Part shown: positions 13,118-63,905 of the stretch, in pieces
Layout: each line of letters opens with the position of its first letter
How positions within the stretch are numbered: the first letter of the stretch is position 1
From: a virus
Taxonomy: Duplodnaviria > Caudoviricetes
Strand: one strand, 5' to 3'
DNA length: 64,000 nt
Virus record (IMG/VR): IMGVR_UViG_3300028048_000075
Span: 65,606-129,605 of that record
Position numbers and translations under genes: made by a program
The notes under the pieces: generated by a model
Databases searched by the model: none
What the model was told of the DNA's origin: nothing
The model's input: the letters and a program-made list of their open reading frames with translations, nothing else

Positions 13118-13156
13118 CTGTTAAGACCCCCCCCCACACTTATATATTATAATAAT
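13118..13156 (+). promoter_or_regulatory. early-type promoter with poly-C (C9) spacer
   Basis: CTGTT-aaga-C9-acac-TTATATATTATAATA. Confidence 0.7.
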
Positions 13157-13826: not shown

Positions 13827-13857
13827 AAAGAAAGGGGCTTCGGCCCCTTCTTTTTTT
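13827..13857 (+). terminator. rho-independent terminator (UUCG loop)
   Basis: AAGGGGC-TTCG-GCCCCTT plus T-run. Confidence 0.85.
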
Positions 13858-31179: not shown

Positions 31180-31207
31180 AAGAAGGGCTTCGGCCCTTCT
31201 TTTTTTT
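31180..31207 (+). terminator. rho-independent terminator (UUCG loop)
   Basis: AGAAGGGC-TTCG-GCCCTTCT plus T-run. Confidence 0.85.
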
Positions 31208-38040: not shown

Positions 38041-38117
38041 TTTTTTTAATAATTATATATTATATGATTGAGAGAATGTTAATGTCTCTCAATCACAAAC
38101 AACAGGAGGCCAGTATA

Positions 38118-39458
38118 ATGGCAAGTATTACAACTAATAGTTTGAGTGGTGGAGCTGTAAAGAAGGGTGCAGCTGGTGGGAAGAAAAGCAAGGTTATGCC
38201 TTTTCACACGAATGAAGCGAAGGAATTCATGGCAGACAAGCATGAATTCTTGGGTTTCACTTTCTTCAAGAAAGTAGAAATCAATGTTTTCATTCCGAAC
38301 GAGTGTTCTGAAGAGGCATTGGGTGTCGTTCATTCCACCATCATGAATGGAATCGACGGTATTTTCAATACTATGAAGGTTCCTGACATGATTGCATTCG
38401 AACTCAATCCTGATGAGTTCAAACTCGGCAAGGTAAACGCCGTGTTTACAGCGAATATTCCATTCTCTGGAAAGATGGATATCGTTATCCAGACAATCAA
38501 GAGAGTGGTAAACAATACCATAAAGCCTGGACTAGAATCCATGAACTTCGATCTCAGTTTGAGAATCAAAGACATGGTAAGAATTGGGGTAAACGCAGGT
38601 CTTGAACACCAGGCAAACTCCAAAATCTTCCTTAAGGGATTCACAGCAATCAGTCATGAGGATCCAAGAATCAATAGGGAAACTGGCGAACAGGTCGGAA
38701 ACCCTAAGGATTACATCAAGACCGGAATCTATGTTGCCGATTGGGCAGGTTGGAAATTGAGAGACGTTATTACGTTCAATCGTTTTAGCCTTAACATGGC
38801 AAAGATCATGGTTTCCAAAGCTGATGACACCGTTGAGCAGAGCTCATACGAGTATTGGATTCCTTACAAGAAGAACTTGAAGATTATTACATACCAGTTT
38901 GAATCTGGTGATGCTAAGAATCCAAAGTTCCTTGTACACACAACTACGCTGTCCATTAACGTGGTAAAGAATTCAATCATGAATGGGCAGAAGAAGATTC
39001 TTGCAGGAATTTCTTGTAATAGGAAGTTCTTCAACGGCTACGTAAGCGGTATCGAAGAAGCTATTACAAATCGTGACGGTGTAAACATTCTCACAATCGG
39101 TTCCGGTGCAGACGAAAAAGGTCGTGATATGGACACATACATGGCTGATGTCAACACTATCGATTCAGTATTGTTTGCCGGTATCACAAAGGTTCCTGAT
39201 GAAGAAGATGAAACTGTTGTAAAGGAAGAAGAAAAAGAACCAGCATTTAACGATGTTGGAACTTTGGCTGATGTCGTCTCCGATGAAGTAGCTGAAGATG
39301 AAGACACCGATGTTTCTGAAGAAGAAACTGAAGATGTTGACGTCGATGTCTGCGAAGATGAAGAAACGGACGAAGATCTTGATCCAGATCCTAACGAAAG
39401 TGAAGTTTCTGGAGATGAAACAGAAGATGTTGAACCATCAGTAACTGTTGAGCCATAA
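38118..39458 (+). CDS. early protein with long acidic C-terminal tail
   Basis: AGGAGG RBS; early-type promoter at 38053; D/E-rich last about 90 aa. Confidence 0.8.
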   Translation: MASITTNSLSGGAVKKGAAGGKKSKVMPFHTNEAKEFMADKHEFLGFTFFKKVEINVFIPNECSEEALGVVHSTIMNGIDGIFNTMKVPDMIAFELNPDEFKLGKVNAVFTANIPFSGKMDIVIQTIKRVVNNTIKPGLESMNFDLSLRIKDMVRIGVNAGLEHQANSKIFLKGFTAISHEDPRINRETGEQVGNPKDYIKTGIYVADWAGWKLRDVITFNRFSLNMAKIMVSKADDTVEQSSYEYWIPYKKNLKIITYQFESGDAKNPKFLVHTTTLSINVVKNSIMNGQKKILAGISCNRKFFNGYVSGIEEAITNRDGVNILTIGSGADEKGRDMDTYMADVNTIDSVLFAGITKVPDEEDETVVKEEEKEPAFNDVGTLADVVSDEVAEDEDTDVSEEETEDVDVDVCEDEETDEDLDPDPNESEVSGDETEDVEPSVTVEP

Positions 39459-39547
39459 ATCGTTCAGGCTTAAGTTGTAATTGGAATGCAGGGGAGAATC
39501 CATGATTCTCCCTTGTGTTTATTTATTATGTTTTGTGGAGGATGTAA

Positions 39548-40183
39548 TTGAATAGCGAAACTAAGGAAACTCTCGCTGGAATCGGAATCTGTGGACTGGT
39601 AATTGCGACATTTGGAGCAATAATTGTTGGTACCAGTACTGCTGAAAAGAAAAGAAATGCTGAGCGAAGAACTCGGTACAATGAGCATAACGATGCCATT
39701 GATGCCGAGATTTCAAGCATTGGTAATTTCTCCGTGAACGATCTTATCAACAGAATTGTAAGAAGTTCTTGGATTGATTCCGGTGTAAAGCGTTCAGCAG
39801 TCAATTCTATCAAGTCTGGTAGAAACAAGATCGATTCCGAAGCTGCTAAGCAGATTTACTCCATTGTCAACAATAACTTTATCGACGACTACGATAAGAG
39901 TGAAATTGTTTGGGGAATCTGCGATGGTCACGTAAAGACCAAAGAAGAACTCGAATTGGAAACACAGGAGAACTGTGCTAGATACGAGTATCTTAAGCAC
40001 AAGGAAAGTGAAGAAACTAAACGTCAAAAGGATCGCTGGAAGTATCGTGAATATGAGAAGGATCGTGAGAATTCTTTGAAGAAAACACGTATTATAGCTG
40101 ATGCTACACGTGAGGTTTTAACAAATGTAAATATCAACAAGCTCGGTGAAAAGTCCGAAGAAAAGGATAAGAAAAAGAAGTAA
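39548..40183 (+). CDS. N-terminally anchored hypothetical protein
   Basis: GGAGG RBS with TTG start; LAGIGICGLVIATFGAIIVG TM. Confidence 0.75.
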   Translation: MNSETKETLAGIGICGLVIATFGAIIVGTSTAEKKRNAERRTRYNEHNDAIDAEISSIGNFSVNDLINRIVRSSWIDSGVKRSAVNSIKSGRNKIDSEAAKQIYSIVNNNFIDDYDKSEIVWGICDGHVKTKEELELETQENCARYEYLKHKESEETKRQKDRWKYREYEKDRENSLKKTRIIADATREVLTNVNINKLGEKSEEKDKKKK

Positions 40184-40235: not shown

Positions 40236-40273
40236 CTGTTTAAACCCCCCCCCCACTTATATATTATAATAAT
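40236..40273 (+). promoter_or_regulatory. early-type promoter with poly-C (C10) spacer
   Basis: CTGTT-taaa-C10-ac-TTATATATTATAATA. Confidence 0.7.
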
Positions 40274-40322
40274 GAAGAAGGGAAAACAACCAAATCTAAA
40301 ACCCTCCTTCAAGAGGTATTAT

Positions 40323-40553
40323 ATGAAAAATAAAATTTACATGGCTCTTACAATTTTGACATTTGGTTGCTGGATAGGTGCCATTGTTACCACCATTTGC
40401 TGTATAGTCGATCCGACATCGTCCATTGCGGATAGTTGGTTCGGATGGGCTATCTATATGGTGGCTCAGATTGTAAGAGGAATAGTTGGAGGCGACTTCA
40501 AGGAGTACGCCTCCATAATGAAATTTCTGATCAGAAACGCAAACGCTCGCTGA
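40323..40553 (+). CDS. small two-TM membrane protein
   Basis: GAGG RBS before ATG 40323; two hydrophobic segments. Confidence 0.7.
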   Translation: MKNKIYMALTILTFGCWIGAIVTTICCIVDPTSSIADSWFGWAIYMVAQIVRGIVGGDFKEYASIMKFLIRNANAR

Positions 40554-40557
40554 TCAG

Positions 40558-40604
40558 AAGAAATCCGAAAGCACTGAAATGTGTGAGTAGGATTTCTTTT
40601 TTTT
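40558..40604 (+). ncRNA. structured 3' element copy 1 (GAAA/GAGUA internal loop plus U-tract)
   Basis: AAGAAATCC-GAAA-GCAC-tgaaat-GTGT-GAGTA-GGATTTCTT-T tract. Confidence 0.7.
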
Positions 40605-40669
40605 ATTTATATATTATATTAATGAGTGGATAAACAAAATTCAAAACCACTCATATAGGAGTATTAATT

Positions 40670-41854
40670 ATGAAAGACAAGATTGTTATCAATGAGGAAG
40701 AGTTGATGAAGTTGAATCGTCCTGTAACAAAGAATGACTTCACACCAACAAAATTGGATGTAAATATAGATTACAACTATCTTTACGATTTATTGACTTC
40801 AGATATGAACTTGATCACTCATCCTGGTCAGTTCCATGCCGATGAGGTTTTTGCTATTGCATTGATACTAATTGCACGTCAAGCAATAGTCAATGCATCT
40901 AAACCTGATCCTGCAGAAGGATTGAGACCAACTGTACCTTATATTAAGGCAGTCGTAAATCGTTTTAATATCGCAGGTCTTCGACCAGAAGAACTTCGTG
41001 ATTATTACTATTACGACTGTATTCTGGATTTGAAAAATGGTCATTTCGACCATCATCATGACAATCCAGAAGAACGTTGGTTTGCCGATGAAAAGTTTGG
41101 ATTTGAGCCATCCAAAGAACACAAAATGGATGCGATGGCAACCTTTGGATGTGTCTGGTATAAGATCGGAAAGATCTTTAACATCCAGGGCGTAGAAGGT
41201 TCCAAGAACGTCTACACGGAGCTCTACAAGAATTTTATTAGAGAAATCGATCAGATTGACAATAATGGTCCTAAGGTGGCTAAGTCACAGATCGGTAAAA
41301 TGATCTCTAATATGAATATGTGGACTCCGTATGAGTACACTAGACGTTATACTCCTAATGACTCTGATGCAGATCTTGGAACAACTCCAAACTTCATTGA
41401 GGCTGTGAGGTTAGCGATCAGCATCTTGCATGCTGAAATTGTTCAGACACAGAACATGTTTTCTGCTGTGGTGAACGTTCAGAAAAAGTGTAAGATCGAA
41501 AAGATCAATGACATCACATACGTAAAGATACCTCGTGTAGCTGATGATGAGGAAGAACCAAATGTTCCTCTTGAAGCTGCGGAGATGATCGGTGCTGATG
41601 TTCTAGTAAATTACAACCCGAGTGATCGTGACGGTTCATTCAGAATCGTCATGACAAATTCATCGAAATTGGCATTTGATCAGGAGTTGTTTAACATAAG
41701 AGAGCATATTGACGGTATGCTCTTCATGCATCCTGCTCGTTTCATAGCATCATTTGATTCTGTCGAACATTTGGACGAATTCATAAATCGTCTCAAACGC
41801 TACGATATTACAAATGGTGAAACTGGTGAGACAACAGGAACCGTCTCTTTCTAA
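40670..41854 (+). CDS. MYG1-family (UPF0160) metal-dependent nuclease
   Basis: THPGQFHADEV, GHFDHH, ATFGCVW, IDQIDN, FMHPARFIA. Confidence 0.85.
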   Translation: MKDKIVINEEELMKLNRPVTKNDFTPTKLDVNIDYNYLYDLLTSDMNLITHPGQFHADEVFAIALILIARQAIVNASKPDPAEGLRPTVPYIKAVVNRFNIAGLRPEELRDYYYYDCILDLKNGHFDHHHDNPEERWFADEKFGFEPSKEHKMDAMATFGCVWYKIGKIFNIQGVEGSKNVYTELYKNFIREIDQIDNNGPKVAKSQIGKMISNMNMWTPYEYTRRYTPNDSDADLGTTPNFIEAVRLAISILHAEIVQTQNMFSAVVNVQKKCKIEKINDITYVKIPRVADDEEEPNVPLEAAEMIGADVLVNYNPSDRDGSFRIVMTNSSKLAFDQELFNIREHIDGMLFMHPARFIASFDSVEHLDEFINRLKRYDITNGETGETTGTVSF

Positions 41855-41876
41855 AATAACGATTTAATAAATATAA

Positions 41877-41905
41877 AGAAGGGCTTCGGCCCTTCTTTTT
41901 TTTTT
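41877..41905 (+). terminator. rho-independent terminator (UUCG loop)
   Basis: AGAAGGGC-TTCG-GCCCTTCT plus T-run. Confidence 0.85.
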
Positions 41906-41915
41906 CTCTATTTTT

Positions 41916-41929
41916 GACAAACTAATATA
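41916..41929 (+). promoter_or_regulatory. late-type promoter GACA-N6-TATA
   Basis: GACAAACTAATATA. Confidence 0.65.
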
Positions 41930-41949
41930 ACTAAATAAGGATAACTATT

Positions 41950-42735
41950 ATGGATGATTCTAAGGCTTTATATAGAAAATATTTTAAAAGAATGCCTGAT
42001 GATTCAGTACATTTCTTTGGCGAAAAAATGATTATTCAAATACCAGAAATATTCATAGAACGCGGTATTACTAAGATCGTTCAAACTAATGTTAATACTA
42101 TTGGTATTTTTGAAGGTTATATTTTTGATAATTCTGATGAAGAAGATATATCAAAAGCCGATCATAAGTTTGTATTGAAATTACCATCAACAATATATTT
42201 ACAACCTTCACATATTGAAAAAACTACAAAAATGGTGGAAGATGTAGAAACAGATACTATGAAAAAAGAAAATTTCTACAATTTCATATTTACATATGAC
42301 GACGTATTTATGGTAACGTGTATTCTTGTTCAAGACTTCCATTGTGTTGATAGTTTCTGTGATATGCTTCTTAATGGTAAGATACCAGATATGATTCGGT
42401 ATGATGAAATGACCTCATTGTGGGCAAAATGTGCAGAAATTAACGGTTCTAAGAATCTTAAAACAGATTTCAATACACTTGCTATGATTGTTTCTAATCT
42501 TATTCGTGATCCTGAGAATTTTTCTGATCCATTCCGTTTGGTTTATGAAAAATATTATGCTAAAGGGATTTATAACGGTAAGCGTATTATGTATCGCGAT
42601 ATTCCTAGGTATATATCCAACTTCACGGCTATTACTGGTTCTGATCCTAGATTCGGAGTAACTGTATCAATGGAAAAGACAAAGGGTAGAAAGAAACCTG
42701 ATACTACGTCTCCTGTAGAGGAAATGATTAAATAG
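41950..42735 (+). CDS. jumbo-phage late protein, putative virion component
   Basis: Late-type promoter; C-terminal FTAITG...SPVEEMIK recalls conserved phiKZ/AR9-group proteins. Confidence 0.55.
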   Translation: MDDSKALYRKYFKRMPDDSVHFFGEKMIIQIPEIFIERGITKIVQTNVNTIGIFEGYIFDNSDEEDISKADHKFVLKLPSTIYLQPSHIEKTTKMVEDVETDTMKKENFYNFIFTYDDVFMVTCILVQDFHCVDSFCDMLLNGKIPDMIRYDEMTSLWAKCAEINGSKNLKTDFNTLAMIVSNLIRDPENFSDPFRLVYEKYYAKGIYNGKRIMYRDIPRYISNFTAITGSDPRFGVTVSMEKTKGRKKPDTTSPVEEMIK

Positions 42736-42743
42736 GAGAGTTT

Positions 42744-43442
42744 ATGGGAATATATGATTACGAAAACATGTTGAAGCATGAAATCTATTATAAAGATGGT
42801 AGAAAGAGTAATCTCATGGAAAGAACTAAAGAAAACATGCGTTTTATTATACATTACGCTAATTTTCTTGTTCCAAATAGTTTAGGAAGAGTAATTAATA
42901 CCCATGTTTTCAAATACACTAAACTTAGAGAAGAAATATATGCTTTGACTTGTAGATTATACGATGTACAAGACAAAACCGTTAAAGAAGCTTCACAATT
43001 TACATTTTATGTAAATGAAACATCGTTTTGGAATAGATTTCATATTTATACTAAAGATGGTATGCTTTTGAGTGCTAAACATGGTATAAGTGTTAATGAA
43101 ATGCTTAATATATGTGAGCATGATAAAGATAAGTTCGATAGAATAGATTTGAATCTTATTCCTGCTGAGAAAGATGAATTGCATAATTCTCCTATTCTTA
43201 TACAAGATGAAGCAGAGAGATTGCATATTTATGACGATAGTATAGTAGTTATAGATTCACACATTAATTATAACAAACGTGTTTGGTGCGAATTGTTTGA
43301 TCAACAGCTTATTATTCCTAGTGAAATAAAAGGTGGAGTTGAAGTAGTTACCCGTTTAGGCAATTATAAAACCCCTGGTACTATTCTGTATTATGATCCT
43401 AATGATCCTGAATATGAAAAATATTCTCCTTTATATCTTTAA
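42744..43442 (+). CDS. hypothetical protein
   Basis: AGGAG RBS; 232-aa ORF. Confidence 0.75.
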   Translation: MGIYDYENMLKHEIYYKDGRKSNLMERTKENMRFIIHYANFLVPNSLGRVINTHVFKYTKLREEIYALTCRLYDVQDKTVKEASQFTFYVNETSFWNRFHIYTKDGMLLSAKHGISVNEMLNICEHDKDKFDRIDLNLIPAEKDELHNSPILIQDEAERLHIYDDSIVVIDSHINYNKRVWCELFDQQLIIPSEIKGGVEVVTRLGNYKTPGTILYYDPNDPEYEKYSPLYL

Positions 43443-43488
43443 AATATTGAAATAGTGGGATTTTCCCACTATTTCATATACTACCAAA

Positions 43489-43502
43489 AACATTAGAATA
43501 TA
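43489..43502 (+). promoter_or_regulatory. late-type promoter AACA-N6-TATA
   Basis: AACATTAGAATATA. Confidence 0.65.
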
Positions 43503-43521
43503 CTTAAAAGAGGGTAAAACT

Positions 43522-45207
43522 ATGTCTAGTAGTATGGATTTGGACCTTCTTAATGTCAATAAAGACATAGAAATGAATGGGTGGTTGGAAGTTACATCAC
43601 CTAAATATTTTGTGTCAAATACGACTGAATTGGATCCAGAAGGTATATTTTCTATAGATATATTTGGAGAACCTGGTACCGAAGACAGAAAGCTTAAATG
43701 GGGATGGGTAAGATTGAATGATGTATTCATGAATCCTCATGCTTACTATGTATTATTCCGTCTTAAAAAGAATATTGCGGAAGATATGAAGACCGGTACA
43801 GGCAAATATTATGTTGATAAAACTGGAGAATTAGTTAAACTTGCTGCTGGAAAAACAGTTCCTGCAGATGCTGCATATAGTGTTCTTGGTAGTGGATTTG
43901 ATTGGTTAAAAGATGCTTGGCCTCATATAACTTGGAGAACTACCAAAGATATGTCTATGGCAGCTAAAACTCGAAGAAGATTCTTAAAAGCATTTGATAT
44001 AGATGCTATTTTCTGGGATAAATTTCCTATTTGTCCAGCATTCTATAGAGACGTTGATTATAAAACGTCTAAAAGGAATGTTATAAATAAAATGTATACC
44101 AAAATTATAAATCTTGCACAGATTTTGAAAAATACTAGCAATCTTGTATTTATTGATGATCCTGAAATACCATCTAAGAGCATTTCATATACTAAGATGC
44201 AGGATGCAATGAATGAAATTGCTGAATTTTTCTTTGGTAAAATTGGAGGAGCTGATGGATTTATTAATAAACATGTTGTTGGTAAATCTACTGACTATGG
44301 GGCTCGCCTTGTTATTTCGTGTCCTTCGTTCAATTATGAAAGGTATACAGATGTTGATGTAGACTTTTTCCATTCATCTGTACCTTTAGCTGTAGCTATA
44401 AACATTTTTGCACCATTCATGATATATGAAATCAAAAGGTGGATACTAGGTCATGTCTCTGGTAATAGATTTTTACGTTATTACGATTTCAATAAAAAGA
44501 AATTTATTGATGTAGAGGTATCTAAAGGATATATAGACGAGTTCTCTACTGATGAAATTCGTCGTTCATTGGATCTTTATAAAAAATCTAAGATCTATAG
44601 AGCAAAAACTGTTACTATTAGAGGAGAAAATGGTGAAAGAATACCTATTCAATTAACATTCTCTTATAATACACAGAACAATCAAATTATTCTTAGTACA
44701 GATAGAAATGACATAGAAAGTACGGATGATCCAGATAACTTTGTTCGTAACATAACGTATTGTGAATTGTACTACATTATCGCATATGAAGCATTGAAGA
44801 CTAAATGTGTTGATGTAACTCGTTATCCTATGGATGACTACTATCACATTTTCCCTTCTTTGATGAATATTATTCCTGCGGTAAAGACTAGACCTGTAGC
44901 TTTCAATGGTGTAGTATATCCTAGATATCCTATTCTACAACATAAAAATAAAAGTGAGCTTGAACATATGTTTATAGATTCACTAAAAATGTTCTCTATT
45001 AACCCGTCTGCACTTGGTGCTGACTTCGATGGAGACCAGGTTTCTTGCCAGAGTTTGTTTGCAGACGAATCTAACGAAGAAGCGATTCGTCAAATGAATG
45101 CAAAATCGAATATTCTTGGTATGAGTGGTAAAATATTCAAAGAGTTACCAAAAGTTGTACAACACGGACTCTATGGATGTACATTCATGAATAAGAAACC
45201 TGTATAA
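43522..45207 (+). CDS. RNA polymerase beta' subunit, N-terminal/catalytic half (probably virion RNAP, phiKZ gp180-like)
   Basis: DPEGIFSIDIFG, FPICPAFYRD, VVGKSTDYGARLVI, VTRYP, catalytic ALGADFDGDQ; late-type promoter. Confidence 0.92.
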   Translation: MSSSMDLDLLNVNKDIEMNGWLEVTSPKYFVSNTTELDPEGIFSIDIFGEPGTEDRKLKWGWVRLNDVFMNPHAYYVLFRLKKNIAEDMKTGTGKYYVDKTGELVKLAAGKTVPADAAYSVLGSGFDWLKDAWPHITWRTTKDMSMAAKTRRRFLKAFDIDAIFWDKFPICPAFYRDVDYKTSKRNVINKMYTKIINLAQILKNTSNLVFIDDPEIPSKSISYTKMQDAMNEIAEFFFGKIGGADGFINKHVVGKSTDYGARLVISCPSFNYERYTDVDVDFFHSSVPLAVAINIFAPFMIYEIKRWILGHVSGNRFLRYYDFNKKKFIDVEVSKGYIDEFSTDEIRRSLDLYKKSKIYRAKTVTIRGENGERIPIQLTFSYNTQNNQIILSTDRNDIESTDDPDNFVRNITYCELYYIIAYEALKTKCVDVTRYPMDDYYHIFPSLMNIIPAVKTRPVAFNGVVYPRYPILQHKNKSELEHMFIDSLKMFSINPSALGADFDGDQVSCQSLFADESNEEAIRQMNAKSNILGMSGKIFKELPKVVQHGLYGCTFMNKKPV

Positions 45208-45218
45208 GGAGTAGTATA

Positions 45219-48200
45219 ATGGCAAAAAATAAAAATGTGCCTAATCCACTTAATAACGAAACGAATCTTAGTATCTACGCAGATCATCTTGGTTTAACAC
45301 CAAATTTTATTAAACAACATCGCGATAAGCTGAATAAGATCGAAAAACAGGTAGAAAAAAGTCTAAAAGATACCAATAAAGATGATCCTAATACGATTTT
45401 TGACACAATGGGAGTTCTTAAGAAGCTTACTGAAATGACATACGTTTCAGATGCTTATGAGAATAACTTAAATGTCAATACATCTGATAGAGGTTCTCTC
45501 GATACTAAAGATGGTTTCCGTATGATTTATGGAGAAGCTGAGAATAGATACGATACTCAGATATTTAATTTTCATGCTTCTCTTTTCTCTAATTATCGTA
45601 ACCTTGTTTCTGAATATAGAAATATTTCTCGTCTTATTCAGGAAGTAGATAGATGTGCTGATATGAAATCTAGAGATATCTTGGCAATCAACGAAATTAC
45701 TAAGAGATCTATTACGAATATTTATCAGCCAGAATCAAAAGATCCTGATGCATTCTTGCCATCAAATTTGGTAATGAATCCTATCAATAAATCTATTCAG
45801 GAAAAAATTCTTGATAGATATGAAGTGGAAGAAAAACTTCCAAGATACATTAAACTTGCTCTTATTGAAGGTGCTAGGCCAGTAGTAGTATATCCATTTA
45901 AAGATATTATCGAAATGGCTAATTATAACGTTACTCTCTATAGACGTAAGTTCGTAGATTTCAATATGAAATATGAACAGAACAGTAGTTCTACTGAGAG
46001 TTTTCATGATTTCTTGTTAGGATATCACAACAAGAATCAACGTATAGTACCTGATGAAATGACCAAACGGGTTTATACATTTGGTCAAGAAGATGTGTCT
46101 CAAACTACAGAAGAAGACTTTAGAGCAAAACGTGATGCAATAATTAAACGTTATGTATCTGATGATGAACTTAATGAGTACTTTGTAAAAGGTTGTGAAG
46201 ACATTTCTAATAATCTTGATATTGCTGAACGTAAACGTTTATTGGAAATTTATGGTTCTAATGTTATAGACAAAACTTCAGAAATTGAAGAAACTAAGAG
46301 TAATTTCCAGGATCTTCATGCTAAAGTTAAAATAGATGGTTCTTTGTCAGAACATTTCAAGAATCAGATTTTCAATGCAATCAAGACATTGGATTCCAAT
46401 ATCGAATTCTTTGATCAGTCTGAAGCTCCTATGAGTTTTGCTATAAATAACTTTAGACGATTAATGCAATTTGCTTCATATCACGAAGATCCTTCTTCAG
46501 GATTGATAGCATATGACGCTAGACAGCAACCTTCTAAGAAACTCAGCGAAAAAATTCCTAAATATTTCCAAGATGATCCAATGTATCGTTTGGATAATAA
46601 AAATCGTTCGAATGAACCTAAATCTATTCTTGATGAGTTCGAAGATTTTAATGACGAAACAAATAACGTTCTTAACGATTGTTTGATTAAGGAATATGAT
46701 GCTGAAGACATGATTCCTATTGTAATTGCTGGTAAACATGTTGGTTATTATGCATTGGAAATGTCTCCATATACAGGAAATGCTGAGTCTATTAATAAAC
46801 GTAACTGTAACTTTACAGATATGTTTATAAATCTTGGTATTAATAACGATCTTCCATTATCACCATCTCCTTCTACTACTGGTTCATTCTCAGCTGGTGT
46901 ACAAACAATGCCTCTTGGAGGTGTTGGTCCTACTTCTGAGATTAGTTCTATTGGTATAACTGGTGCAGGTACTACTGCTATGGCTGGTGGTCTTGATATT
47001 GCAGGTTTTGATATCACTCCTATGGGTGATGATGCTTTACATCGCAATAACATCATGAAGAAGATCATTTTTAACGTATTGAAAGATAAGTTAAAAAGAA
47101 AGGATATCGATGACGATGAATTTTTCACTGACACCATTATGGCACTTATTAGAGACGGTGCTATTATTCAGAATAAGATCAAAGTTATCTATATTCCTTC
47201 AAAATACGTTTGTTATTTCTCACCAGAGATTGATGGCAACGGTATTCCTCAGTCATTTATGAAAAACTGCTTGTTTACTTGTTACGAAAAGATTCTTGTC
47301 AATATGAATAACATTATGACAAGATTGACTCGTACAGGAACAAGAGATAAGATTACCGTAAACATTGGTAAAGCTAAAAATATGGGATTTTCTATTAGAT
47401 CTATTGAGAATGCTCTTTCTACAAGACGTCTTAATGTAGAATCTCCATTTACTTCACTTTCTAGAGTTCTTAAATCTGCTTCATTGTCAGAAACAATCAT
47501 TGTTCCTGTATTTGAAGGAGAAAAACTCTTTGAATATGAAGATTTGACGAGATCTAATGAAGTACAACCTCAGGATGATCTTGAGCAAAAGCTTTCTAAT
47601 GAAATTGTTACATCTCTTAAGTGTCCAATTACTATTACCAATCCATATCAAGAAGAAGACTTTGCTTCATTAGCTGCTTCTAGAAATGCTGAATATCGTT
47701 TTGATATCATTAAGCAACAAAAAGTATTTACAAAAACTATCGAAAAGTTCTTGAAATTGCTTTTTGTAGGATCTGGTTTGTATGCGGAATTAAAAGAAGG
47801 TAATCCTGATCTTTCTCTTAAGAATATTAAAGTCACATTGTCTGCTCCAGAGACATTGAACATGAAGAATGCTAATGAAACATTTGGTACTGTTCAGTCT
47901 TATGTTGAAAACCTTCTCGGTATTATTGTTAACCCAGATGATTCATCTGAAGTGACAAATATGCTGCGATGGATATTGAAAAAGCGACTATATCAGAGAT
48001 ACATGCCTGGTGTTGATTTCGATACACTTCTTAATGAAGTCGATCGTCTTAGAGATACTGCACGTAAAGAAGTTATCAATCAGAAGAAAGACGATTCTAT
48101 TAACAATGAAATTGTTAATACATCATTTGAACCTGTTGAGGTTGATAATTCTGGTGATGCTGTTGTTCGTGGAGATTCCAATAAAGATGTTGGTCTTGGA

Positions 48201-48263
48201 AACGGTGACAGTGGCGATAACGAATCTGATGATAGTGGTGGTGGCGACGATATGTCATGGTAA
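45219..48263 (+). CDS. portal protein (phiKZ gp129-like, T4-portal-related)
   Basis: MIPIVIAGKHVGYY, IYIPSKYVCYF..GNGIPQS, DFASLAASRN, acidic/Gly C-terminal tail; size and late context. Confidence 0.65.
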   Translation: MAKNKNVPNPLNNETNLSIYADHLGLTPNFIKQHRDKLNKIEKQVEKSLKDTNKDDPNTIFDTMGVLKKLTEMTYVSDAYENNLNVNTSDRGSLDTKDGFRMIYGEAENRYDTQIFNFHASLFSNYRNLVSEYRNISRLIQEVDRCADMKSRDILAINEITKRSITNIYQPESKDPDAFLPSNLVMNPINKSIQEKILDRYEVEEKLPRYIKLALIEGARPVVVYPFKDIIEMANYNVTLYRRKFVDFNMKYEQNSSSTESFHDFLLGYHNKNQRIVPDEMTKRVYTFGQEDVSQTTEEDFRAKRDAIIKRYVSDDELNEYFVKGCEDISNNLDIAERKRLLEIYGSNVIDKTSEIEETKSNFQDLHAKVKIDGSLSEHFKNQIFNAIKTLDSNIEFFDQSEAPMSFAINNFRRLMQFASYHEDPSSGLIAYDARQQPSKKLSEKIPKYFQDDPMYRLDNKNRSNEPKSILDEFEDFNDETNNVLNDCLIKEYDAEDMIPIVIAGKHVGYYALEMSPYTGNAESINKRNCNFTDMFINLGINNDLPLSPSPSTTGSFSAGVQTMPLGGVGPTSEISSIGITGAGTTAMAGGLDIAGFDITPMGDDALHRNNIMKKIIFNVLKDKLKRKDIDDDEFFTDTIMALIRDGAIIQNKIKVIYIPSKYVCYFSPEIDGNGIPQSFMKNCLFTCYEKILVNMNNIMTRLTRTGTRDKITVNIGKAKNMGFSIRSIENALSTRRLNVESPFTSLSRVLKSASLSETIIVPVFEGEKLFEYEDLTRSNEVQPQDDLEQKLSNEIVTSLKCPITITNPYQEEDFASLAASRNAEYRFDIIKQQKVFTKTIEKFLKLLFVGSGLYAELKEGNPDLSLKNIKVTLSAPETLNMKNANETFGTVQSYVENLLGIIVNPDDSSEVTNMLRWILKKRLYQRYMPGVDFDTLLNEVDRLRDTARKEVINQKKDDSINNEIVNTSFEPVEVDNSGDAVVRGDSNKDVGLGNGDSGDNESDDSGGGDDMSW

Positions 48264-48269
48264 ATTAAT

Positions 48270-48300
48270 AATCAGAGAGGGTTTGTCCCTCTCTGATTTT
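48270..48300 (+). terminator. rho-independent terminator
   Basis: AATCAGAGAGGG/CCCTCTCTGATT plus T's. Confidence 0.8.
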
Positions 48301-48327
48301 ATATTTCTGGTGAACTTAAAGGTATAA

Positions 48328-48338
48328 TTATATATTAT
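48328..48338 (+). promoter_or_regulatory. early-type promoter
   Basis: TTATATATTAT with CTGGT 16 nt upstream. Confidence 0.7.
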
Positions 48339-48383
48339 AATATTGAGTAGGATAAAAATCCGTCCTACTTAAGGAGTATTATA

Positions 48384-48608
48384 ATGGGATTTAATGAAAA
48401 CGAATTCTTTTCTCAAGAAGAATTCGAAAAGGTCTCCCGTGAGACCTTGGCCTACTGGAGCGATAGTGTTCCAGTATTAAACAGCGGATATGATCAGGAG
48501 CACATCATTGCTCCTTTCGAACTTGAGAACAGCTCAAATGTTCTTGGGCTCGAAAAAGACTATGATAGAGAAGGTCGTCTTCTTGGTATAGACGGCCTTC
48601 CAGTCTAG
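48384..48608 (+). CDS. small acidic early protein, 74 aa
   Basis: AAGGAG RBS; 16 D/E versus 5 K/R. Confidence 0.75.
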   Translation: MGFNENEFFSQEEFEKVSRETLAYWSDSVPVLNSGYDQEHIIAPFELENSSNVLGLEKDYDREGRLLGIDGLPV

Positions 48609-48611
48609 TCA

Positions 48612-48673
48612 TTCCCTGAAAGCAGCCGCCTACTACCGGGGCGGCTGTGAGTAAGGGAAGTTTCTTTTTTTTT
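48612..48673 (+). ncRNA. structured 3' element copy 2 (GAAA/GAGUA internal loop plus U-tract)
   Basis: TTCCCT-GAAA-GCAGCCGCC-loop-GGCGGCTGT-GAGTA-AGGGAA then T tract. Confidence 0.7.
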
Positions 48674-48738
48674 ATTTATATATTATATTTATGAAAGAAC
48701 TCGTATGAGTTTTTAATTTATATTCTAAGGAGAATATT

Positions 48739-49746
48739 ATGGATATGGAGAAACACATTACAAATTCATTAATAGTTAGGTTTTATAACTATTTAGTGAA
48801 AAATCCAAAGTTCAAAAGAGCTGAGAAACTTTCGGACATTACGGAAGTCGGTATAGGGGGACCAATCTGTGCCTTTGAAGCTTTAATTGCAGTTTGCATT
48901 TATGGAATAATAATGAGTGTAAACAATATGAATCCATTTGATGAAAAACATCTGCCAGCAGCGCTTTTGATAATGACTACAACGGTCGCATCAATTGGAG
49001 TTATTCTCCAGCTTATACGAATGGAGATGGTAGATCACATCGATCCTTTTGGTAGTTACAAAGACATAGTTCAGCTAAAAAATGAGCTAGAAGAAGTCAT
49101 ATATAAGATAATCACCAAAGAATACAAAAACGGTATAGTGCTCATGAAAACCTGCGATTTCTCAAGAAATATTGATGCAATCGCTGCGATTTTATACACT
49201 ATATCTATAAAACAAGATCGTTTCGAATTTTATGAAATTTCTCAAGCTATTAGAAAATTTATAAAACTCAATGGTGAAGATGTTGAAGAAACTTTTGTTT
49301 CTGACAATATACTTATACCAAACCTGGAAAATTACAAGAAGTTTGTGACATTCTTGATTTTCAGTGATATCGATCGAATTGATACAAAAGATTTGCAAAA
49401 CACATTGCTCGAAAGAAACATCACGCATAGAAATTATGAGAATTCAGAAATTTCTGCAGCGATAGCTGTTCTTTTGGATTGTGCTAGAATCGTTGAAAAT
49501 TCACCAAGATTAAAAGCCAATTGTATTAGAAAGTTGGTTAGTAAAAGTGATTTGGAAATCAATATCACAGATTATACTAAGCCGGAAGACATTATTGGTA
49601 AAACAAACATCATCTTGAATAGTCCACAAATGTTGACGTTTGCTGGAATTACAGGAAATGATATCAAATCCAGGGTAAAAGAAATCATAAAAGATTTCAA
49701 TAAACGCCAGAAGAAAGAAAAGAATAGCGATTATTACTGGTTGTAA
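48739..49746 (+). CDS. hypothetical protein with N-terminal hydrophobic segments
   Basis: AAGGAG RBS; early-type promoter near 48676. Confidence 0.75.
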   Translation: MDMEKHITNSLIVRFYNYLVKNPKFKRAEKLSDITEVGIGGPICAFEALIAVCIYGIIMSVNNMNPFDEKHLPAALLIMTTTVASIGVILQLIRMEMVDHIDPFGSYKDIVQLKNELEEVIYKIITKEYKNGIVLMKTCDFSRNIDAIAAILYTISIKQDRFEFYEISQAIRKFIKLNGEDVEETFVSDNILIPNLENYKKFVTFLIFSDIDRIDTKDLQNTLLERNITHRNYENSEISAAIAVLLDCARIVENSPRLKANCIRKLVSKSDLEINITDYTKPEDIIGKTNIILNSPQMLTFAGITGNDIKSRVKEIIKDFNKRQKKEKNSDYYWL

Positions 49747-49765
49747 TATTAATGTGATGTTCGAA

Positions 49766-49811
49766 AAATCCGAAAGCACCGAAAGGTGTGAGTAGGATTT
49801 CTTTTTTTTTT
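49766..49811 (+). ncRNA. structured 3' element copy 3 (GAAA/GAGUA internal loop plus U-tract)
   Basis: AAATCC-GAAA-GCACC-gaaa-GGTGT-GAGTA-GGATTT-c-T tract. Confidence 0.7.
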
Positions 49812-49874
49812 GTAATTTATTTACTTATATATTATGATTTAGACGAAAACAAGATATTATATGTGAGGTGTTAT

Positions 49875-63866: not shown

Positions 63867-63905
63867 CTGTTCAACCCCCCCCCCCCGATTATATATTATA
63901 ATATT
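63867..63905 (+). promoter_or_regulatory. early-type promoter with poly-C (C12) spacer
   Basis: CTGTT-caa-C12-ga-TTATATATTATAATA. Confidence 0.7.

Follow-up and report, generated by a model that had tools for sequence, protein, structure and literature searches.

A hairpin module with an invariant loop-E-type internal loop recurs behind genes of a giant rumen phage and of unrelated phages

Three terminator-like hairpins on the + strand of an uncultured tailed phage (Duplodnaviria; Caudoviricetes; IMG/VR record IMGVR_UViG_3300028048_000075) from bovine gut and rumen metagenomes contain one and the same internal loop, GAAA opposite GAGUA. The stretch that was analysed, positions 65,606 to 129,605 of the record, comprises 64,000 nucleotides (nt) and is called the window throughout. 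The loop belongs to a hairpin module that is widespread, almost phage-restricted and uncatalogued. It is an autonomous RNA building block rather than a terminator-specific device, because it is found in hairpins without a U tract and in group I introns of Bacillus phage AR9. As a structural motif it is already well known; what is new is that it is used recurrently, in one orientation and almost only by phages, as a hairpin standing on its own behind genes.

All three copies in the window share one layout, in which an outer stem encloses GAAA, a variable inner hairpin opening with GCA and closing with TGT, and GAGTA, and is followed by a run of 8-10 T. Loop-E terminator 1 (40558..40604, + strand) starts about 5 nt 3′ of the stop codon of a gene for 93 amino acids (aa); its outer stem can be extended to about 11 base pairs (bp), GAAA lies at 40567-40570 and GAGUA at 40585-40589, the inner hairpin is GCAC/GUGU with a U-U mismatch, and the T run has eight residues. 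Terminator 2 (48612..48673, + strand), 3 nt 3′ of the stop codon of a 74-aa gene, combines the outer stem UUCCCU/AGGGAA with GAAA at 48618-48621, a 10-bp inner stem and GAGUA at 48649-48653; here GUUUC stands between the stem and a T9 run. Terminator 3 (49766..49811, + strand), 19 nt 3′ of the stop codon of a 335-aa gene, has the outer stem AAAUCC/GGAUUU, GAAA at 49772-49775, an inner stem GCACC/GGUGU capped by a GAAA tetraloop, GAGUA at 49790-49794 and T10. Copies 1 and 3 share their outer stem (AAATCC/GGATTT), so that the window holds only two independent outer stems. The hallmarks of an intrinsic terminator, a stable hairpin and a directly adjoining U-rich tract, are present in all three copies, with GUUUC preceding U9 in copy 2.

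Sequence reading, pattern search, RNAfold and a covariance model agree on these coordinates and on this layout, as given in the first-pass annotation of the window. The pattern GAAAGCA-N(3-30)-TGTGAGTA has three matches in the window, compared with none in 100 shuffles, and none beyond these three in the whole 129.6-kilobase (kb) record. For each copy RNAfold predicts two coaxial helices parted by a 4x5 internal loop, with energies of -17.8, -29.1 and -13.9 kcal/mol and z-scores of -4.3, -3.9 and -2.4 for copies 1, 2 and 3, respectively. When the window is scanned with the covariance model only these copies score high (41.2, 33.1 and 43 bits), the runner-up site reaching 12 bits. A census of hairpins followed by T runs on the + strand of the window yielded about 17 sites, three of which have the loop (copy 2 was assigned by eye, TTTC separating its stem from the T run); the other ~14 are perfect hairpins, in keeping with the annotation's description of all other terminators as plain.

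The family reaches far beyond this phage. Searches of IMG/VR with the bare loop words returned mostly chance matches, and those with paired flanks were intergenic in unrelated phages. With GGG/CCC flanks the words (GGGGAAAGCA..TGTGAGTACCC) were found at 76 viral-contig loci, against 0 for a control with the two words exchanged, and with CC/GG flanks (CCGAAAGCA..TGTGAGTAGG) at 8 loci, which added five more outer stems. Bacterial genomes, 596 gigabases in all, contributed two matches, one of them apparently coding. Judged by flanking sequence, at least 15 independent phage contexts can be told apart, and another 195-kb contig carries two terminator copies. GAAA and GAGUA are invariant in 23/23 aligned non-redundant copies. 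In the same copies 91% of stem cells are paired vs 61% in shuffles, both partners have changed in nine of ten pairs, and the signal collapses in slid controls; most copies were gathered with patterns or filters that demanded outer pairing, and these pair statistics are partly circular. RNAalifold independently yields the same structure. From phage to phage an identical 23-nt core, GAAAGCACCGAAAGGTGTGAGTA, is enclosed by different outer stems, the loop is usually closed by a G-U pair, and the minimal form of the module is GGGG-GAAA-C GCAA G-GAGUA-CCCC. The earlier description of a covarying hairpin family with an invariant loop is therefore upheld, and the module turns out not to be specific to this phage, as had been proposed, since the same loop occurs in these many unrelated contexts.

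Novelty relative to Rfam, which the annotation had proposed to check, also stands. In Rfam 15 no family reaches its gathering threshold in the window, none appears near copy 1 at E up to 10, and none matches the family loci apart from Intron_gpI around the AR9 copies and unrelated tRNAs. Literature searches on loop-E, sarcin-ricin and bulged-G motifs in connection with phages, terminators and intergenic regions, and on P7.1 with loop E, yielded no description of this element. When 35 nt of the element were compared with cultured phages by blastn, only chance coding matches in primase/helicase and exonuclease genes came up, and a 21.5-bit model match in Staphylococcus phage SA1 lies inside an HNH endonuclease gene and was taken as chance. 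Terminase and exonuclease protein searches for cultured relatives of the freshwater phages that carry the module found none close enough for a host or literature link.

In all copies the loop conforms to the sarcin-ricin/loop-E consensus, with 5′-GAA-3′ opposite 5′-AGUA-3′ and the final A of AGUA lying across from the G of GAA. Regular helices flank it on both sides according to RNAfold, RNAalifold and the pair counts, much of the set having been gathered with outer pairing required. The assignment to the bulged-G motif (loop E, sarcin-ricin, S-turn) is thus in accord with the sequence of every copy, and the S-turn geometry is predicted on that basis. The sheared G.A end of the phage loop would then stack on the outer stem and not on a GAGA tetraloop, with the variable cap (GAAA, 7 nt or long inserts) at the opposite end.

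Several other structural readings were considered and set aside. GAAA/GAGUA in either register does not give the 3-nt bulge and GA/GA arrangement of a kink-turn; hammerhead, tetraloop-receptor and CRISPR-repeat mimic were ruled out by sequence inspection. A stimulator of stop-codon read-through or frameshifting was dropped in view of in-frame stops within a few codons in the window. A hairpin acting at the DNA level (attC-like or a nuclease site) is less likely, given that the loop follows an RNA consensus, that the copies are co-oriented with genes and that strain changes keep G-U pairs on the sense strand only.

With one exception the copies are co-oriented with their flanking genes, and they begin 3-30 nt past a stop codon; in four lineages this stop codon is that of the gene for the single-stranded DNA-binding protein SSB, and in one it is that of a Cas4-like exonuclease gene. 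Copies that lack a U tract, found behind SSB and exonuclease genes, often lie about 20 nt before the next start codon. Behind the Cas4-like exonuclease gene of lake phages, at orthologous loci that were gathered via the protein and not via the motif, the closing pairs of the inner hairpin are GUG/CAC, GC/GC or the minimal C-GCAA-G, which shows that GCA/UGU is not the fixed part of the motif it had been taken for. One copy at this site reads AAGUA, and many of the loci have a different structured element in place of the loop-E hairpin.

The lake-phage site has further features of its own. At L218:1140-1310 and some 80 related loci (L218-L297) a stretch of ~170 nt free of open reading frames (ORFs) lies behind the exonuclease gene; it contains a small hairpin (GUUCC-UUCACG-GGAAC), next either the loop-E hairpin or the alternative three-way element (GGGCGGCAGG..CUGCCGACCC), and then a conserved segment (GGGCGUUAAGCCGCC..GCGGCUUUC..CUGCCCUG) that ends in a U run. 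It has no Rfam match and is probably an uncatalogued phage small RNA. In many freshwater copies (e.g. L010, L129, L136, L153, L137, L281) A-C or A-C-U (ACC, AAC, CACC) very often comes next after the outer stem's 3′ arm, and the alternative element at the lake-phage site is likewise followed by ACC.

A covariance-model search of Bacillus phage AR9 gave three matches (CGAAAGCAAUC..GAUUGUGAGUAG), all of which lie within Rfam group I intron matches. In these introns the loop, GAAAGCA/UGUGAGUA, occupies a peripheral insertion after P7 (NC_031039.1 63848-63874, 150756-150782 and 174853-174879), between the 5′ strand of P7 and P3′, which is the site where introns of subgroup IA carry P7.1/P7.2. The window itself has no Intron_gpI match, and an intron core was found only around the AR9 copies. 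Another conserved context is shared by L005, L018, L040, L041 and L070, where the same loop comes with a 10-bp inner stem and lacks a simple outer stem. The flanks of this context (..CCGGCUCAACA..CACAAGGAGUGG) are reminiscent of that of the AR9 intron, and Intron_gpI stayed below threshold on the two loci searched, L005 and L018.

Closer relatives show how the elements are maintained. Five strain-level contigs (L197-L201), retrieved via the 335-aa protein and not by motif, retain all three elements, though the flanking 335-aa protein is only 75-79% identical. Element 2 is identical across them; in elements 1 and 3 the sole stem changes are A-U to G-U, C-G to U-G and U-U to U-G, which keep or improve pairing on the + strand only. 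The more distant relative G001, whose family B DNA polymerase (PolB) is 58% identical, has the same core at another locus, within an outer stem AACCC/GGGUU and with a U tract. Together with the other viral contigs, these copies bear out the expectation that the element would recur in relatives. An unbiased clade search by TGTGAGTA-N(10-30)-TATATATTAT returned one true member besides the excluded own record.

The window encodes a fragment of a phiKZ-type RNA polymerase beta subunit and a divergent PolB. Among cultured phages the closest by PolB, with 22-25% identity, are Staphylococcus phage SA1 and the Bacillus phages AR9 and PBS1, and no close relatives were found there at the DNA level. The box TTATATATTAT occurs 16 times (between 1562 and 63899, e.g. 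at 38052, 40256, 40606, 48327, 48675 and 49824), always on the + strand, compared with 3.5 expected occurrences, and a G follows six bases downstream in the 11 copies checked. In AR9 the early promoter, used by the virion RNA polymerase, has been defined experimentally as AAATATATATTAT-(6N)-G+1 (PMC5312081). The agreeing arrangement TTATATATTAT-N6-G starts 2-13 nt 3′ of each loop-E hairpin; as far as can be read from sequence, each copy therefore precedes an early promoter, as the annotation had stated. Because the box matches the AR9 early promoter, the uncultured rumen phage would find its place in an AR9-like transcription scheme.

The putative promoters and the genes between them can be laid out as follows, all on the + strand. 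Matches to the AR9 consensus follow terminator 1 (40606..40624, TTTATATATTAT-N6-G(+1)), terminator 2 (48675..48693), from where the 335-aa gene would be driven, and terminator 3 (49824..49842), ahead of the divergent PolB gene that it would drive. The unit ended by terminator 1 (40256..40553) consists of a promoter box at 40256-40267, behind a C10 tract, and the gene of a 93-aa predicted membrane protein (40272-40553); the unit ended by terminator 2 (48327..48608) consists of a box at 48327-48338 and the 74-aa gene (48384-48608); and the 335-aa gene (48739..49746) lies between terminators 2 and 3. Each loop-E hairpin closes one such monocistronic unit starting at a TTATATATTAT box. Assembled contigs from RNA libraries break at each of these intergenic cassettes, and a DNA contig is continuous, which is a weak hint, as repeats also break assemblies; RNA-library coverage may also be DNA, and since only assembled contigs were compared, 3′ ends, strand and expression level cannot be read from them.

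Three smaller features of these early units deserve mention. Predicted early transcripts have a hairpin at their very start, from +1 on and just before the ribosome-binding site (40624-40652, GAGUGG..CCACUC; 48345-48370, GAGUAGGA..UCCUACU; 38070-38092, GAGAGA..UCUCUC), and these may be 5′-terminal stabiliser stem-loops. Runs of 9-12 C stand between a plain terminator and an early promoter box at three sites (13127-13135, 40245-40254 and 63875-63886); one strain has two additional C at 40244, which suggests length variation. A plain terminator with a UUCG tetraloop, AAGAAGGGCTTCGGCCCTTCTT, is identical at 31180-31201 and 41876-41897, with a near copy at 13828-13852.

The three genes that end in loop-E hairpins are the most divergent ones in a 21-kb overlap with strain L197. 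Core genes there are 94-99% identical at the nucleotide level, with a synonymous divergence (dS) of 0.04-0.30 and a ratio of non-synonymous to synonymous divergence (dN/dS) of 0.01-0.16, vs 66-84% identity, dS from 0.45 to saturated and dN/dS of 0.12-0.32 for the three. Between strains that are otherwise 95-99% identical, the 93-aa gene has 65.6% nucleotide and 54.5% aa identity, the 74-aa gene 79-84% nucleotide identity (dS 0.9-1.05) and the 335-aa gene 82.5-83.6% (dS 0.45-0.60, dN/dS 0.20-0.32). Homologues of the 335-aa gene number five only, all in close strains; PHROGs, Pfam and a protein atlas gave no match for any of the three proteins, and the 93-aa and 74-aa proteins, when compared, were unrelated. 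The intergenic cassettes are 89-100% identical between strains, and just two further segments of low identity exist, an indel in a 709-aa gene (judged from the shorter L197 gene) and a segment near 39156-39556. The raised synonymous divergence suggests that the three genes have undergone allele exchange with more distant phages, and together with the sharp drops in identity it suggests recombination at the cassettes. In strain L200 (1300-1660, corresponding to about 41900 in the window) an additional cassette follows precisely at the end of the terminator at 41875, made up of an early promoter, an ORF of ~50 codons and a plain terminator. This moron-like cassette indel indicates that cassettes are exchanged in the clade, and not at loop-E terminators only.

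What the module does can be proposed only tentatively. The reading we favour, at a probability of roughly 0.4, is that of a self-folding S-turn module by which the 3′ end of an mRNA would acquire a rigid structure for docking or stability. Transcription would be terminated, and the transcript released, by outer stem and U tract; the S-turn hairpin would then be retained at the mRNA 3′ end or, in phages whose copies lack the U tract, at an intercistronic position. There a protein or another RNA could dock onto the rigid S-turn, or the S-turn could hold up 3′ exonucleases; the hairpin would in this way determine how stable the upstream message is or how it is processed, and would not be an on-off switch of termination.

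The autonomy of the module speaks for this proposal. A U tract is present in about half of the lineages, among them other large AT-rich phages with the loop in their terminators, and absent in about half, which, together with the AR9 introns, also contradicts the earlier view of a family specific to terminators. Other observations weigh against the proposal. Besides the circularity of the pair statistics noted above, the enrichment in one unbiased sample was modest, with six matches having at least five outer pairs vs 0-3 in six slid controls. A search for a candidate binding partner found none, and an L25-like protein was likewise not found in the half-complete record. In relatives whose PolB is 50% identical, the site before PolB is occupied by plain hairpins, and no copy was found in a 99%-complete 276-kb relative; because close relatives use plain hairpins or have no copy, the loop is sporadic among relatives, and termination as such can do without it. 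Plain hairpins also close other early units of this phage, so that any special fate would be limited to few messages. The putative roles in termination, stability and binding rest on sequence and predicted fold.

A broader and distinctly more doubtful version of the proposal holds that the S-turn module is a phage-wide RNA tag behind selected genes (here fast-evolving early takeover or anti-defence genes), for which there would be a single conserved reader, of host or phage origin, or which would block a conserved host RNase or immune sensor, and so decide the fate of the message; if so, it would represent a new broad class of phage cis-acting RNA element. It is somewhat less likely still that the terminator-promoter cassettes are recombination linkers, that is, homology anchors for swapping early accessory genes between co-circulating phages, with the loop-E core mostly a passenger carried along by them and not a regulator of RNA fate. 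The strong divergence of the three genes between conserved cassettes, the complete promoter-ORF-terminator cassette inserted in L200 and the identical 23-nt core in different outer stems would all suit such linkers, and a precedent exists in the PeSL cassettes of T4-type phages, in which a composite stem-loop and an early promoter flank small variable ORFans and which undergo cassette insertion and allele replacement (PMC2839356, PMC4122927). However, the invariant loop, the covarying stems and changes that keep wobble pairs on one strand point to an RNA fold, rather than DNA homology, as the target of selection; moreover, the freshwater-phage copies are not attached to promoters, and both the cassette inserted in L200 and the two other variable segments use plain hairpins. 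The linker and the docking or stability readings are compatible and not mutually exclusive.

The remaining alternatives are less probable. Factor-controlled, conditional terminators, in which a phage or host protein reading the S-turn stabilises or melts the hairpin and thereby tunes read-through into the next gene, would explain why the loop sits in mid-stem, where binding could alter hairpin formation, and why it is found in only three of ~17 terminators, all three ending units of the same promoter class; loop-E motifs are, moreover, known protein sites, e.g. in 5S rRNA. We nevertheless consider such control improbable: a U tract is altogether missing from roughly every second lineage of the family, the occurrence in introns means that termination is not the common denominator, read-through control would add little where each terminator is directly followed by a promoter of its own, and no candidate factor was found. 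Mimicry of the ribosomal sarcin-ricin loop (SRL) or of 5S loop E, by which VapC-type SRL nucleases or other host ribotoxins, translation GTPases or a ribosomal protein would be titrated, had been raised in the annotation as a decoy for ribotoxins. The loop does match the GAA/AGUA consensus, a phage-restricted distribution would suit counter-defence, and the 3′ strand GUGAGUAGG resembles 5S rRNA GAGAGUAGG, a likeness that serves as a lead only. Yet 23S SRL has the order AGUA, GAGA-capped stem, GAA, and the phage hairpins have the reverse, GAA(A), hairpin, (G)AGUA; because of this reversed orientation a ribotoxin or GTPase-centre decoy is very unlikely. The two words that have 76 loci in the viral collection gave 0 in the swapped, SRL-like order, the cap is variable and the sheared end points towards the outer stem, three copies per half genome on ordinary mRNAs would make a poor decoy dose, and an L25-like gene is missing from the half-complete record. 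Least credible of all is a ligand or ion sensor embedded in the terminator. The HMP-PP thiS motif, a tiny riboswitch, has a comparable layout, with conserved internal-loop bases inside a terminator stem; on the other side, the elements have no Rfam match, lie behind genes and not ahead of them and often have no U tract, and the loop is a textbook self-structured motif with no obvious pocket.

Catalogued phage RNA elements are few and mostly bound to one lineage, and a module of ~30-50 nt with a textbook tertiary motif that recurs in giant rumen phages, small freshwater phages and phage introns is of interest for this reason. If it is read by a conserved factor, phages would possess a general way to mark or protect particular messages, and the module would be a small, transferable component with which RNA stability or termination could be engineered. 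The loop-E terminators also flag the three most rapidly diverging early genes as natural candidates for host-takeover or counter-defence functions, and the same data bring to light T4-PeSL-like cassette exchange in an AR9-like giant phage.

Among known systems, the closest structural counterpart is the sarcin-ricin/loop-E module of the 23S SRL, of loop E in eukaryal 5S rRNA and of T-box Stem I, with which the phage hairpins share a GAA/AGUA internal loop between Watson-Crick helices, an invariant loop and covarying stems. Here, by contrast, the module is a free-standing hairpin on phage mRNAs, with an extra A.G layer, a G-U or G-C closing pair and an S-turn that is predicted from sequence. Canonical intrinsic (Rho-independent) terminators likewise have a stable hairpin directly before 8-10 U, just downstream of a stop codon, but are not interrupted by a 4x5 non-Watson-Crick loop, as the perfect stems of the window's other terminators illustrate. 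A speculative functional resemblance can be seen to REP-type or RNase III-generated 3′ stabiliser hairpins (E. coli malE-malF REP, T7 early mRNAs), which are also packed closely into the gap from a stop codon to the following ribosome-binding site, in many cases after strongly expressed genes such as SSB, although there is no sequence relation.

The PeSL cassettes of T4-type phages have in common with the window a terminator hairpin and an early promoter between genes, variable flanking ORFans, cassette insertion and allele replacement between close strains. Composite stem-loops and early promoters flank variable ORFans in the window too, yet PeSL are further characterised by demonstrated recombination, by sigma-70-like promoters and by plain G/C-rich stems, whereas here the promoter is of the early, virion-polymerase type of AR9 and three stems contain the predicted S-turn. 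Finally, the group I introns of AR9, a cultured relative of this phage's lineage, hold three copies of the same loop words (CGAAAGCA..UGUGAGUAG) around a short hairpin. In these introns the loop adjoins a multi-helix junction, has one outer pair and is part of a ribozyme, whereas the copies in the window are simple hairpins with U tracts.

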